From the NCBI GenBank assembly GCA_951406725.2, contig OX597830.1:55676001-55740000 (forward strand): DNA of 64,000 nucleotides, in the 5' to 3' direction. Below, in pieces: positions 480 through 62,067 of this stretch. How positions within the stretch are numbered: position 1 is the stretch's first letter; each line of letters starts with the position of its first letter. The DNA is from Octopus vulgaris (taxonomy: Eukaryota). The notes beneath the pieces were generated by a model. It saw only the letters and a list, made by a program, of their open reading frames with translations. It was not told the origin of the DNA and did not search any database. A program made the translations under genes and the position numbers.

Positions 480-607
480 GCAAGTCTAACCTGCAGATAT
501 GGAAAGTTTCCCACGATTTCTGTTACAGAAGTGCATTCAAAACCAAATGAAAACTTCGTAAGATGTCCAACGGGTTCTACGATGTTGTCATGCACCTACT
601 GGTCTTC
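480..607 (+). CDS. Exon 1 (first in window): Cys-rich module
   Basis: ttttttcag|GCA...TC|gtacgt; ASLTCRYGKFPTISVTEVHSKPNENFVRCPTGSTMLSCTYWSS; phase 0 to 2. Confidence 0.8.
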
Positions 608-810
608 GTACGTTTACTTTATATATTCATACATATGCAGCTACAAGTGTGTGAGGGTGTATATATATACATACATACATATATATATATATATATATAT
701 ATATATATATATACATTACAGATATAGGGTGAAATATAATTAATTTAATAAAATCAACAAATTTCACCTAGTAGTATTTCGATATGGAAAAGGACCATAT
801 TCGGTAAAAA

Positions 811-981
811 TTTATATAATTAGAATAATAAGGGTATTTTGCAACAAGTTGCTTAAACCACATACCGAAAATTTTAGAAATAGCAGCCAAAAGACTAAAA
901 TTTTCCAAAATTTTCTAAAATTTTCGGTATTCGGTTTAAGCAACTTGTTGCAAAAAACCCTTATTATTCTAATTATATAAA
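811..981. repeat. ~70-bp inverted repeat (foldback) between (TA)n tracts
   Basis: 811-880 is the near-perfect reverse complement of 912-981. Confidence 0.85.
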
Positions 982-1577
982 TATATATATGCAGTTACGG
1001 TATTTTCTGTTGAGAACGTAGTAGAGTACATTATAAGGCATATCCACCTTCAGATTTATCTTGTGCTATCCAGTAGTAATATTATACATACTTCCAGATT
1101 TGCGTTTGGTGCCACCTAGAAGGAGTACGGTTGGACATTTATTTTTTAATCACTACAATTGTTTCCACGCAACGTAGTTCACCAGCAGAGCAAGTATTTG
1201 ATTATGCAACTGTTTGCCTGCATTATGAGGTCAGGTTGTGTTTCCACAGGCGATGGCCTGAGAAAAACAAGCTAGATCTCATAATGAAGGCAAACAGTTG
1301 CATAATCAAATACTTGCTCTGCTGGAGAACTACGTTGCGTGGAAACAATTGTAGTGATTTAAAAATAAATGTCCATCTGACTCCAATTTTTTCAAGTATA
1401 TATACATACATATATATATATACATACATACATATATATATATATATATATATATATATATATATATATATATATATATATATATATATATGTATGTATG
1501 TGTGTGTATATATGTCTATATATATATATATGTATATGTATATGTATATATATATATATGCATATATATATATATAT

Positions 1578-1960
1578 CTCTTTTACTTGTTTCAGTCATT
1601 TGACTGCGGCCATGCTGGAGCACCGCCTTTAATCGAGCAACTCGACCCCGGGACTTATTCTTTGTAAGCCCAGTACTTATTCTATCGGTCTCTTTTTTGC
1701 CGAGCCGCTAAGTGACGGGGACGTAAACACACCAGCATCGGTCGTCAAGCGATGCTAGGGGGTCAAACACAGACACGCAAACACACACATATATATATAT
1801 ATACATATATACGACAGGCTTCTTTCAGTTTCCGTCTACCAAATCCACTCACAAGGCATTGGTCGGCCCGGGGCTATAGCAGAAGACACTTGCCCAAGAT
1901 GCCACGCAGAGGGACTGAACCCGGAACCATGTGGTTGGTTAGCAAGCTACTTACCACACA
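1578..1960 (-). mobile_element. tRNA-derived SINE family A
   Basis: Nearly identical to 52694-53103 and 59277-59695; B-box-like GGGTTCAGTCC; tail GGCGGTGCTCCAGCATGGCCGCAGTCAAATGACTGAAACAAGTAAAAGA. Confidence 0.85.
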
Positions 1961-2339
1961 ATATATAATGTAGTATCATACATCCTAAAATCTTGTTTAT
2001 TACAATATTACATACAATGCGTTTACTTTAAATCCATCGGATGAAATACTAAGTGATCGTTTACCTTTACCAACTTCCCGTTGTTGTTGTTCTATATCAT
2101 TCCATGTAGTTAGCTAGAACTTGGATTATACTAGAGTACTTGTACGGTCCCTTCCCATTCCTTCCCATCTTATGGCACTTTTTCGCAACCACATGGTTCC
2201 GGGTTCGGTTTCACTGCGTGACCGTGACACCCTGGGCAAGTGTCTTCTACAATAGCCTGAGGCCGACCAAAGTCTTGTCAGTGGATTCTGGTTGACGGAA
2301 ACTGAAAGAGGACTGTCGTACGGGGTCACAATCACGAGC

Positions 2340-2615
2340 GTGTGAGTTTGATTCCTGGACCGGGCTGTGTGTTGTGTTCTTCAACAAGTTGCTCTATTTC
2401 ATTCAGCTGTAGAAATGGGCTGCGATGTCACTGGTGCCAAACTGTACCGGCATTTGTCTTTCCCTTGGATAACATCGGTGGCAAGGAGAGGGGAGTCTGG
2501 TATGCATGGGCGATTGCTGGTCTCCCATAAACAAACTTTCCCAGACTTATGCCCCGGAAGTGAACTTTGTAGGAGCAATCCCATCTTCATTCATGACCTA
2601 AGGGGGATTTTAACC
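2340..2615 (+). mobile_element. SINE family C, partial
   Basis: Homologous to the reverse complement of 51963-52305. Confidence 0.7.
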
Positions 2616-58604: not shown

Positions 58605-58741
58605 GCTTGAGTGGTGGCGCTATCGCTGGTATAGTCATTGGAGTTCTTATACTAATATCTATGGTAGCCGCTGGTGTGGTTCTTCTGAAAAAAAGCCAAT
58701 TTAATTTCCACATTGGACCAATCAAATATGAGACTCAAGAG
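58605..58741 (+). CDS. Exon 23: transmembrane helix and juxtamembrane tail
   Basis: acttatag|GC...GAG|gtcagt; [46 protein letters not shown]. Confidence 0.92.
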
Positions 58742-59276
58742 GTCAGTGGATCTACGTATTTCTTTTACATTTTCTTGTCTTCTGCAGTCAATACTCTTCT
58801 TCTTTCTGTTTTTTCTTCTTCTTTTCTCTGGCATTCAATAGTTTTGACAATATAAACCAAAACATCTGTCATTTATTAAAACTTTACAACAAAAAGAGGA
58901 TAAAAATATCATTGGTCTTCTTTTAGGGAAGGGCGAGAAAGCAACCCGCCCCAGGCGACGATTTTAAAAGGGCAATATTTAGGGGTCTACCTGTAAAATC
59001 CTGTATAAGTTTGGGGTCTTACTTTGGGTGCAGCAGACTCAAGGGCTCCTCTGGACGGTACACACTCTGTCTATGCCACCGTCTTCTATTCCTCAAAGCC
59101 AACTGGTGGTACGTCAAAATATTATTATTTTTACATCCATCCATCTTCTCTGTCAACTATTGCTAGGAGGATCGTGGAGTTAAAGTTCTGAAGCTCTTCT
59201 TCCAGAGGATTCTATCAGGGTAACCGTCATTACACTTTCTGATTGGAATTCCAAGTGTGACCAACTTAAACTATTT

Positions 59277-59695
59277 ACTCTTTTACTCTCTTTTACTTGT
59301 TTCAGTCATTTGACTGCGGCCATGCCTGGAGCACCGCCTTTAGTCGAGCAAATCGACCCCGGGACTTATTCTTTGTAAGCCCAGTACTTATTCTATCGGT
59401 CTCTTTTTGCCGAACCGCTAAGTGACGGGGACGTAAGCACACCAGCATCGGTTGTCAAGCAATGCTAGGGGTTCAAACACAGACACAGAAACACACACAC
59501 ATACATATATATATATATATATATATATACACATATATACGACAGGCTTCTTTCAGTTTCCGTCTACCAAATCCACTCACAAGGCATTGGTCGGCCCGGG
59601 GCTATAGCAGAAAACACTTGCCCAAGATGCCACGCAGTGGGACTGAACCCGGAACCATGTGGTTGGTTAGCAAGCTACTTACCACACAGCCACTC
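59277..59695 (-). mobile_element. SINE family A, near full length
   Basis: Matches 52694-53103. Confidence 0.88.
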
Positions 59696-60523
59696 GGATA
59701 TTATCCAACCATCTTTCATTCTTGCACTATCAAAAGATCTGCTGGTTGGCTCGGTTTGAAGAAACCCTCTTGCGAGACTTTCTTGTGATATTCTAATCAC
59801 ATATCCATAGTTCCAGAGCTGTAGCTTCTCTGCGCTTAACCAGGAGAGATACTTTTATCTCTGAGCAACGTAACCTGTTGAGTGATACTTCTTTCAGAGT
59901 AAGCATGCTGTAGATATAAATATATTTATAAATATGAGTGTGCATAAACGCTTTCGGAAAAGATGATTAAAGAATTAACTAATCTATGGTAAACACAAGT
60001 TCTTGCAAAAATGCAGTGCCAATGCAAGGGAGATAACAATTAAGAAATCCTTAAGTCACCTGCCCTGATCTATATATATATATATTTTTTGAAGTTCCAC
60101 ATTGCCACACATAATCTTGTATATTCTCATTGAAAGCGGAAACAAATACCAACTTCCTTGAGTGAATCGCATGAAGAATTGCGGAGATTTCTCTACATGA
60201 AACCATTGGTTGCCTTGTTAATCTATAAACAAGGTCTATATATATATAATGTATGTATGTGTATGTGTATGTATGTATGTATGTATGTATGTATGTATGT
60301 ATGTATGTATGCATGTATGTATGTATGTATGTATAAAGCTACGTACATACATACATGCATGCATGCATGCATGCATACATACATACATACATACATACAT
60401 ACATACATACATACATACATACATACATACATACATATATACATACATACATACATATATACATACATACATACATACATACATACATACATACATACAT
60501 ACATACATACATACATACATACA

Positions 60524-61807
60524 TATGAGGTGGTATTAAAAAGTTCCTAGACTAGTTCTGTAGCGTGCCAACAGATGGCAGCCTTCATGAGGCAGACTGC
60601 CAACTGACATTGCAGTGTTTACTTCAAAAATTGTAAAATTTGTGTATGTTATAGTCTTGCGAATTTGTCATGGACAGGAAGTTGAAACAGTGAAACAACA
60701 TGAAATTTTGCGTTAAACTTGAGAGACATTGAATACAGTTGGGCAGGTTTTCGGTGACTAGGCACTGGGTAGTACGTAATATTTTGAGTGGCAAGGGCAT
60801 TTCAAAAACGGAAGAACGTCCCTGGGAGATAATGAGTAATCTGGAAGACCTGCCACGAGCATCAGCCCTGGAAATGTTGTATTGTGCATCAACAATTTGT
60901 CCTCCAGGGCTAGGCTATCAATCGAAAGTTCTAGTGCAACGTTTTGAAGTGTTTAAAGGAGGACATTTGACAAAAGCGACTGGATCTGTGCAGCGCAGAT
61001 AATTGGATTTTTCACCGAGCTTTTTTCACTCATGAGTTTCTCGTCAAAAGCAACATGGTATCGCTTCCACCCCTGGCCTATTCGCCAGCTTTAGCATCTT
61101 CCCCAAGATCGTCCTTTTAACACCGTTGTCGAGATCAAGAACGAATCGCAGAAGGTCCTCGATTTGCGTATGGACAACAACTTCCAGGCCGGATTCCAAA
61201 AGTGTCAGGAACACTGGGACCGGTGTATTGCTGCACAAGGTGACTATTTCAAAAGGAATGATGTTCAATCATCATCATCATCATCATCATCATCGTTTAA
61301 CGTCTATTTTCCATGCTAGCATGGGTTGGACGGTTCGACCGGGGTCTGGGAAGCCAGGAGGCTGCACCAGGCTCCAGTCTGATCTGGCAGTGTTGCTACA
61401 GCTGGATGCCCTTCCTAACACCAACCACTCCGTGAGTGTAGTGGGTGCTTTTTACGTGCCGCCGGCACAGGTGCCAGGGTAAACTGGCAGTGGCCACGAT
61501 CATTTGGTGCTTTTTAACGTGCCACCAGCACAGAAGCCAGTCAAGGCGGCACTGGCCTCGGCCACATTCAGATGGTGCTTTTTACGTGCCACCGGCAATG
61601 GTATCACAACTACGATTTCCATTTGATTTTTATTTTGATGCTGATGTACGTGACTCAATAGGTCTTCTCAAGCACAGCAAGTCGCCCTACGATCTAAGAT
61701 AAGCACAGCAGGCCGTTCTGCGATCCAAGGTACTTTGGATGGTAGATAAATAAGTTATTTCTTATTAAACATAACCTAGTCCAGGAACTTTTTGATACCC
61801 TCTTGTA
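60524..61807 (+). mobile_element. Mariner-like relic with nested RTE 3'UTR insertion
   Basis: Imperfect TIRs TATGAGGTGGTATTAAAAAGTTCCTAGACT / AGTCCAGGAACTTTTTGATACCCTCTTGTA; degenerate YSPDLAP-like motif (AYSPALA) near 61075. Confidence 0.72.
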
Positions 61808-61953
61808 TATAAGTATTCGATTTGTATCGACATAAGACAATAAATTCTGAAATAATGTTCTGTATTTCCTATGACAACATCAATCGTAGCAATCCTTTCA
61901 GATATATATCTTTATATATTCTATTCTTTTCTGTTTTTTTTTTAACTCACCAG

Positions 61954-62067
61954 AATGAGGTGAATATTCCAACAGGCTTTGGCGATGATTTCCTTGAGAA
62001 TGTTGTGAACGAGGTGAACGCGGCGGCTTCTACCCAGTCCAGTGAAGAAAAGAGCGGCGAACTGTGA
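61954..62067 (+). CDS. Exon 24: terminal coding exon, acidic cytoplasmic tail
   Basis: Strong polypyrimidine tract then caccag|AAT; NEVNIPTGFGDDFLENVVNEVNAAASTQSSEEKSGEL-stop; phase 0 matches exon 23. Confidence 0.83.
   Translation, partial: NEVNIPTGFGDDFLENVVNEVNAAASTQSSEEKSGEL

Follow-up and report, generated by a model that had tools for sequence, protein, structure and literature searches.

A predicted nested-domain receptor family of molluscs and a homoscleromorph sponge, viewed from an Octopus vulgaris gene

A window of 64,000 nucleotides from Octopus vulgaris (assembly GCA_951406725.2, contig OX597830.1, positions 55,676,001 to 55,740,000 of the forward strand) harbors the 3' part of a gene that almost certainly encodes a member of an unnamed receptor family with type I receptor topology. 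The ectodomain very probably folds as a nest: an EGF module carries an FN2 module, the FN2 module a LamG domain, and the LamG domain a glycine-rich (Gly-rich) beta-helix followed by a WSC domain. Collinear relatives are found across cephalopods, gastropods, bivalves, and the homoscleromorph sponge Oscarella. Overall, a family of nested-domain ligand-capture receptors whose Octopus copy does not internalize its ligand is the best explanation at hand and is considered fairly likely. A first-pass annotation of the same window had proposed an uncharacterized multi-lectin-like surface receptor; it missed the nested topology, an upstream GON domain, the mollusc-plus-sponge family, and a sponge paralogue with a tyrosine kinase. 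If true, the nesting represents a rare multi-level insertion in an animal receptor, as opposed to the usual reading of extracellular mosaics as serial modules, and implies that FN2 and EGF modules can host inserts of about 650-720 amino acids.

The gene and its product

Splice-site and frame scans combined with mapped database proteins define 24 exons on the plus strand (Table 1). All acceptors are AG, every exon except the last is followed by a GT donor, and compatible phases join the exons to a product of 1,031 amino acids with a single terminal stop. This product is identical to the O. vulgaris model CAI9735421.1 (P0004) at 984 of 984 aligned residues, the model omitting four short stretches of it, and shares 987 of 997 residues with the RefSeq model of O. 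sinensis, LOC115221051 (P0001). Residue and cysteine numbers below are those of P0001, i.e. the number in the window protein minus 34. Pfam matches above the cut-off are Laminin_G_3 (E 1e-19) and WSC (E 2e-17), and EGF matches are sub-threshold. Of the domains listed by the first-pass annotation, LamG, WSC, EGF, and the Gly-rich region were recovered, as were the single transmembrane helix and short non-catalytic tail; a contiguous FN2 was not, its missing half being placed after the WSC domain.

A split FN2 module

Exon 4, which terminates at the phase-0 intron taken as the insertion point, aligns on its own with the first halves of FN2 modules (MMP9 318-345, MMP2 307-334), and 12 of its 13 PDB matches are FN2 proteins. 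Single-sequence FN2 matches end at the central loop, and in relatives the Pfam fn2 model is matched at positions 1-21 or 1-29 of 42 only. For the C-terminal half, a profile of the 50-residue stretch after the WSC domain was built from 13 non-octopus relatives. It aligns with the C-terminal half of the MMP modules matched by exon 4 (MMP9 352-370, MMP2 341-360); its 32 matches comprise 10 FN2-bearing proteins (SEL1L, CI-M6PR, and factor XII are counted here on the assumption that they carry FN2), 21 C-terminal thirds of EGF modules, and one unrelated protein. Together, the halves tile one MMP9/MMP2 module without overlap, leave out only the central loop, and retain all four cysteines and the aromatic motifs. 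They lie 665 amino acids apart in Octopus and 621-682 where both half-motifs were matched (one sponge row first matched a WSC motif). No intact four-cysteine FN2 pattern of about 42 amino acids was detected in any family protein examined.

LamG closure and the split EGF

An AlphaFold2 model of P0001, built from 21 sequences, was compared with 48,161 solved chains (VIA-align). Among the best 50 rows, 46 are ConA folds, and 33 of these run from residues ~102-148 to 778-801; 12 of the remaining rows end by residue 330 and one at 656. The best ConA-fold match reaches Z 22.3 (rmsd, root-mean-square deviation, 2.4; 196 aligned residues). Since the alignments extend to 778-801, the LamG fold is predicted to be completed by strands lying beyond the Gly-rich and WSC domains, at residues ~770-783. 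The domain also shows an adjacent cysteine pair, C273-C274 (encoded in window 20742-20831), present in the sponge proteins and most molluscs and lost entirely in the relative P0006; it possibly forms a vicinal disulfide.

Outside the FN2 halves sit cysteines C1-C3 (77, 89, 95) and C4-C6 (812, 814, 823) of an EGF module, and in the model long strands (94-106 and 795-813) flank the insert. The gap between C3 and C4 measures 705-737 amino acids in 22 of 24 members tested, the other two being skipped by the pattern. Joined EGF halves score a median of 14.8 bits, compared with 0.55 for the N part in linear order, 8.7 for the C part in linear order, and 5.85 with a shuffled N part. Following the usual EGF and FN2 patterns, disulfides C89-C812, C115-C784, C129-C799, and C141-C780 are inferred.

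The proposed architecture is therefore one of successive openings. A long two-stranded ribbon bearing the FN2 would interrupt the EGF between its C3 and C4, the LamG/pentraxin-fold domain would interrupt the FN2 at its central loop, and the Gly-rich beta-helix with the ensuing WSC domain would interrupt the LamG just ahead of its last hairpin. Such nested insertions would give the protein two branches, both rising from the split EGF that stands above the EGF stalk and the membrane: the N-terminal arm (GON/WSC-EGF-Cys-rich-EGF) is one, the compact head (FN2-LamG-Gly-rich-WSC) the other.

Several observations weigh against this nest. The matches of the C-terminal FN2 half are individually weak (best E 0.0024), and a profile of the N-terminal region (A1) aligned over 536-584 across a whole MMP2 FN2, leaving room for a degenerate contiguous module. 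The full P0001 model has a predicted template modeling score (pTM) of 0.48 and a mean predicted local distance difference test (pLDDT) of 71.5. VIA-align ranges give the first and last aligned residue only, so that reassembly of FN2 and EGF is not directly visible in them, and the LamG closing segment is the least conserved part of the ectodomain (5-26% identity). The EGF layer is the least secure: the joining profile comprised only 9 training EGFs, joined halves scored barely above the C part alone (14.8 versus 13.1 bits), and only in 13 of 22 members did they outscore each of the three unjoined controls. A complex prediction of the flanks (P0001 73-142 and 776-826) gave a score of 0.00, with the alignment unused and the partner fold uncertain, and was counted neither way. 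The profile alignment across MMP2 FN2 and the only moderate EGF joining result, together with the six cysteines on each flank that could pair locally, would suit a beads-on-a-string mosaic, the picture of the first-pass annotation, in which a degenerate FN2-like module precedes the LamG and a separate small Cys-rich module follows the WSC domain without any nesting. Such a mosaic is nevertheless improbable, as it leaves aside the non-overlapping tiling of a single MMP9/MMP2 FN2, the arrest of single-sequence matches at the loop, the model's completion of the LamG with residues ~770-783, and the WSC-in-GON insertion described next, for which the sponge provides a natural uninserted control.

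The N-terminal arm and the GON domain

P0004 extends 369 amino acids upstream of the window, over a GON domain (P0004 8-150, Pfam E 5e-30), a WSC domain, an EGF, and the initial half of a Cys-rich double repeat. Its start falls within GON, with no recognizable signal peptide; hence, the true 5' end is missing in P0004 too. The 1,591-amino acid relative P0006 and several molluscan and sponge relatives open with a signal peptide-like segment followed by GON. A pair of GON motifs lies 130-135 amino acids apart around the WSC domain in 6 of 6 scorable mollusc proteins (both motifs were matched in 6 of 11) and 43 amino acids apart in both sponge proteins, which are devoid of that WSC. Judged by these spacings, a second WSC domain is inserted into GON in molluscs and not in the sponge.

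The Cys-rich repeat of exons 1-2 yielded no PDB match and no usable ESM Atlas match; weak leads point to the PCSK9 C-terminal/resistin-like module (PCSK9_C3 E 0.099 and Resistin E 7.5, each in 1 of 10 members). According to one study, the GON domain of ADAMTS9/GON-1 works in ER (endoplasmic reticulum)-to-Golgi transport (PMC3338439); that GON might help the octopus protein to mature is speculation.

The Gly-rich domain

Modeled alone (P0001 328-662, 25 sequences), the Gly-rich domain reaches pLDDT 85 and pTM 0.85. Between its beta-strands run long stretches, modeled with confidence, that are assigned to neither helix nor strand and that we infer to be polyglycine-II helices. The strands match parallel beta-helices, e.g. 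FHA (Z 10.3), the HxuA secretion domain (Z 9.9), and TMEM2 (Z 8.6); these middling matches span ~130 of 335 residues. A whole-domain match was obtained with a predicted protein of Bathycoccus virus 1 (TM-score 0.58, rmsd 3.4, 293 columns), and predicted viral proteins, from algal viruses, gave 11 matches at E 0.001 or better. Foldseek against PDB returned no match at E <=0.001, which does not make the fold new. The domain is without a Pfam family, and the ESM Atlas offered only leads below 0.9 (viral and Myxococcota clusters, G8 41%, DUF8003 27%).

The same sequence subtype is present in the EGF-repeat protein P0200 and the WSC protein P0079. It also occurs in 7 of 600 candidate prokaryotic stretches, all seven from myxobacteria (21 of 64 genome parts scanned). 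Of these myxobacterial proteins (L001-L007), at least L001 and L002, like the related P0200, bear EGF-like repeats as well. The family offers a structurally unsolved module, predicted to be a Gly-rich beta-helix.

Distribution and phylogeny

A search with the 851-amino acid core returned 24 matches, 20 of which, with identities of 34-96%, cover at least 92% of it. They comprise the O. sinensis protein, P0006, 17 named proteins from gastropods and bivalves, and the Oscarella lobularis protein P0024. Additional searches contributed further molluscs and a second Oscarella protein (P0174). No collinear member from other animal phyla was encountered among the best ~8,000 candidates of each word-index search or among the best 150 of 3,995 matches of an exhaustive search, which carried no names (all 150 were scanned and 8 looked up individually); the sponge proteins are represented in the latter by fragments only, so that members can hide. 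The relatives are labeled "uncharacterized" or "hypothetical" or were automatically named MEGF10/11-like or crumbs, labels for which the nesting, if true, would account.

The two sponge proteins differ below the head. In P0024, this same head sits on hardly any stalk and is combined with a tyrosine kinase domain (E 3e-85) whose best PDB matches are EGFR, PDGFR, FGFR, and RET. P0174 has an EGF stalk of 1,226 amino acids and two NPIY motifs; within this stalk, at ~1290-1400, lies a non-EGF beta-rich module without a Pfam match. A phylogeny built on the Gly-rich domain comprises 28 rows, the two outgroup rows being long branches, and excludes fragment P0033. In it, molluscs group by lineage and are mostly single-copy, the two sponge proteins join (98/93), and the window protein pairs with P0006 (100/98), the Octopus branch measuring 1.27 versus 0.34 for its sister. 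By this topology, with its weak rooting, the kinase fusion looks sponge-specific rather than ancestral.

The chance is about even that this is an undescribed early-animal receptor family that survives in homoscleromorph sponges and molluscs and was either lost or overlooked in other animals, or was transferred between the two groups. It would combine a three-level nest, a mobile Gly-rich beta-helix module common to myxobacteria and algal viruses, and a head wired to a kinase, an NPxY tail, or, as in Octopus, neither. If so, it would constitute a natural experiment on the exchange of outputs among animal receptors. The sponge may hold a new receptor tyrosine kinase class with kinase-less mollusc counterparts.

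Two groups of gene models deserve mention. Three Sinanodonta woodiana copies on one contig (P0010, P0014, P0016) form a clade, and two of these models lack stalk and transmembrane helix; they could be secreted forms or partial models. In O. bimaculoides (P0005, P0002, P0039), a model automatically named crumbs homolog 1 continues from the LamG exon into what is intron sequence in O. vulgaris (window 20206-20265), and a short model of its own covers the Gly-rich part; this is either a split annotation or a truncated gene.

In the open-access literature, no description of the family or its nesting was found. The same holds for papers on the gene ids of seven relatives, papers combining a GON with a WSC domain, and papers combining Oscarella, receptor tyrosine kinase, and WSC; LOC111138107 is absent from four supplements of PMC9892467. 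The first-pass description of a surface receptor without a characterized orthologue thus agrees with the present results.

Comparison with known receptors

The nearest known counterparts include MEGF10/MEGF11, CED-1, Draper, and SCARF1/PEAR1-type receptors, which share a single membrane pass and a stalk of tandem MEGF/laminin-type EGF repeats (SCARF1 and Tie2 among the EGF matches). Many relatives also share the NPxY motif; in the Octopus copy NPxY is missing and the repeats number two. In contrast to these receptors, the family lacks a tyrosine-based activation motif of immunoreceptors (ITAM/YxxL), and its head of ~1,200 amino acids, from GON to WSC, is unrelated to theirs. No EMI domain was detected in Pfam scans of P0001, P0004, and 14 relatives, the N-terminus being GON. 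The protein would work like a MEGF/scavenger-type receptor, yet stands outside the MEGF10/CED-1/Draper membership.

The octopus protein is likewise not a pentraxin, ADAMTS, or Kremen, and probably not an ALK/LTK receptor. The "pentraxin-like" LamG of the first-pass annotation held for the fold (Z 17-20), a ConA-type jelly roll as in pentraxins and Laminin_G_3/PAPP-A LG (Z 17-22), and failed for the signature: the pentraxin pattern, HxCxS/TWxS/T, has no match in the spliced window protein. PTX3 (Z 20.1) and Limulus SAP-like (Z 18.5) are equaled or exceeded by a bacterial LamG protein and PAPP-A, and, unlike in pentraxins, the domain is membrane-bound and interrupted by an insert of ~440 amino acids.

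ALK and LTK carry a Gly-rich ectodomain module above an EGF and the membrane helix, coupled to a tyrosine kinase. This resembles the present arrangement and the kinase of one sponge paralogue. However, the Gly-rich module is predicted here on a parallel beta-helix, molluscs have no kinase (none in the window gene; one found only in P0024), and the sponge kinase scores best with other receptors. As for the TNF-like plus polyglycine fold of the ALK/LTK ectodomain, the Gly-rich model resembled beta-helices at middling Z. None of the Pfam domains ALK_LTK, MAM, and LDLa was matched, even with E allowed to reach 5-10, and ALK/LTK is missing from the best 50 VIA-align rows for the Gly-rich model as well as from the PDB sequence matches of two other Gly-rich carriers (7 matches for one; for the other the best 60 of 147, all EGF).

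Insertions into extracellular modules are known from laminin (L4 within LE) and from MMP2/9 (FN2 within the catalytic domain), including insertion between C3 and C4 of an EGF-like module. Those are single-level, whereas three levels are predicted here, with FN2 as host rather than guest. The GON domain in a secretory-pathway protein recalls ADAMTS9/20 and GON-1; in the octopus family it is N-terminal and, in molluscs, interrupted by WSC. Neither metalloprotease nor TSP1 repeats appeared in Pfam scans, including those of full-length relatives with signal peptides, and GON proteins with transmembrane regions and no protease are noted in PMC3338439. Kremen1 is similar in having a WSC domain (Z 16) in a single-pass receptor with a short tail, and differs by its kringle and CUB domains, for which the octopus protein has no Pfam match.

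Stalk, tail, and proposed function

The Octopus stalk comprises 121-130 amino acids with only two of the MEGF-type repeats anticipated by the first-pass annotation, against 275-1,226 in relatives and 616-1,226 in gastropods, bivalves, and sponge. An NP motif, mostly in a GFxNP context, occurs in all 19 non-octopus, non-kinase full-length members and in neither of the 2 Octopus proteins; it extends to NPxY/F in 10 of the 19. NPxY coincides with a long MEGF-type stalk in oysters, gastropods, a cephalopod-like relative, and the sponge. The 56-residue Octopus tail has no NPxY, YxxPhi, YxxL/ITAM, or catalytic domain. No vestigial EGF exon was seen between the last EGF exon and the transmembrane exon, and no alternative NPxY exon on the plus strand of 58742-64000.

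In MEGF10, Draper, and CED-1, NPxY recruits phosphotyrosine-binding (PTB) adaptors such as GULP/CED-6 (PMC8092387). The head would capture large polymeric or particulate ligands, most likely glycans or microbial surfaces, as its WSC, ConA, and beta-helix folds suggest. In most relatives, PTB adaptors would be brought in by a GFxNPxY-type tail together with the long stalk, leading to uptake of the kind seen in MEGF10/CED-1, and the sponge paralogue P0024 would couple the same head to a tyrosine kinase. Drawn by analogy, a family role in ligand capture and uptake is a balanced call, with 9 of the 19 relatives having NP without Y/F as a point against it. Farmed oysters, scallops, and abalone carry a mostly single-copy candidate uptake receptor. 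The scavenger role proposed in the first-pass annotation suits the relatives better than the octopus protein, and the multi-lectin character proposed there is hypothetical, with the pentraxin signature absent and the FN2 module split. Owing to the short stalk, the absent NPxY, and the long branch, the Octopus copy is tentatively viewed as a non-internalizing tether or co-receptor, the likeliest role that its sequence suggests.

Instead of capturing glycans or particles, the head might mainly serve signaling or adhesion with a protein ligand or partner, as in Kremen or neurexin, with the kinase-less forms acting in cell-matrix adhesion or as co-receptors. In favor of this, Kremen1 provides the closest solved WSC, protein-binding domains (neurexin, laminin, agrin, PAPP-A) are frequent among the LamG matches, no pentraxin signature is present, one sponge paralogue is a receptor tyrosine kinase, and the family is conserved mostly as a single copy, unlike immune lectin families, which expand fast. 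This is a serious rival, yet somewhat unlikely in view of the long MEGF-type stalks with NPxY, which resemble uptake receptors, and of the Gly-rich module, which elsewhere belongs to myxobacterial EGF-repeat and viral proteins and has a core resembling adhesin beta-helices. For Octopus alone, the gene could be decaying under relaxed selection and retain little function. The branch length and stalk length given above would fit, relaxed selection would account for the lost NPxY, and O. bimaculoides models end after the LamG or span only part of the Gly-rich domain. Decay is nevertheless very unlikely given an intact 24-exon frame across 62 kb, retention of all structural cysteines, 39-50% identity of the Gly-rich domain to relatives, and isoforms of the O. 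sinensis RefSeq model.

Features of the window

Table 1. Exons of the receptor gene and the encoded parts; cysteine and residue numbers follow P0001 unless stated otherwise
Feature	Position in window	Strand	Remarks
3' coding part, 24 exons, type I membrane protein	480..62067	+	Splice chain and O. vulgaris/O. sinensis models; 5' exons (signal peptide, GON, WSC, EGF) upstream of window
Exon 1 in window: second unit of Cys-rich double repeat	480..607	+
Exon 2: end of Cys-rich double repeat	5926..6023	+
Exon 3: one intact EGF followed by C1 and C2 of putative split EGF (C77, C89)	14089..14241	+	Acceptor atypical, pyrimidine-poor
Exon 4: C3 of putative split EGF (C95), long beta-strand, N-terminal half of FN2 (C115, C129)	16205..16329	+
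Exons 5-9: main body of LamG/ConA-type domain (135-326) and Gly-rich start	18314..24811	+	18314-18448, 18972-19196, 20742-20831, 22356-22436, 24688-24811
Exons 10-16: Gly-rich domain (predicted short parallel beta-helix, ordered Gly-rich loops) with 6-Cys subregion	26519..40634	+	26519-26622, 28205-28310, 30418-30535, 31602-31750, 33944-34061, 35442-35584, 40468-40634
Exons 17-18: linker and most of WSC	41137..42494	+	41137-41300, 42405-42494
Exon 19: WSC end, predicted LamG closing strands (~764-782, C780), start of putative C-terminal FN2 half (C784)	44701..44863	+
Exon 20: FN2 end (C799), return beta-strand, C4-C6 of putative split EGF (C812, C814, C823)	48844..48939	+
Exons 21-22: two MEGF/laminin-type EGF repeats, short stalk	53539..56888	+	53539-53680, 56763-56888
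Exon 23: single transmembrane helix and juxtamembrane tail	58605..58741	+	Helix ~58619-58687, window amino acids ~955-976
Exon 24: stop codon after an acidic cytoplasmic tail that lacks NPxY	61954..62067	+

Two AATAAA motifs follow ~400 nucleotides downstream of exon 24. Isoform X1 of O. sinensis uses a downstream donor that adds nine amino acids before the transmembrane exon, and this donor is also present in the window (56889-56915). A CAC/ACC-rich tract directly before exon 3 (13720-14088), Thr-rich in the frame of that exon, was rejected as a mucin stalk on account of in-frame stops upstream and of its absence from both Octopus models. Nor do these models back an alternative acceptor upstream of 14089 that would add a mucin-like spacer. 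The window contains no Rfam family.

By eye, stretches reminiscent of endonuclease and C-terminal reverse transcriptase remnants of long interspersed nuclear elements were noted at 88-330 (plus), 6403-6597 (plus), and 14668-14886 (minus) and a mariner-like stretch at 60971-61316 (plus), all without Pfam match. On the minus strand, a weak hAT dimerization remnant (12387-12539, E 0.025) and a helix-turn-helix remnant of mariner Mos1 (3515-3709, E 9e-9) were recognized. A 196-amino acid open frame in intron 1 (4663-5250, minus; GIY-YIG endonuclease match, E 6.5e-6) is probably the remnant of a Penelope-like retroelement. An intronic element of ~4.1 kb (7337-11420), for which no target-site duplication was found, has perfect inverted repeats of 173 nucleotides, extending at 91% over another ~165 nucleotides, and a microsatellite-rich core; it looks like a young foldback or terminal inverted repeat element.

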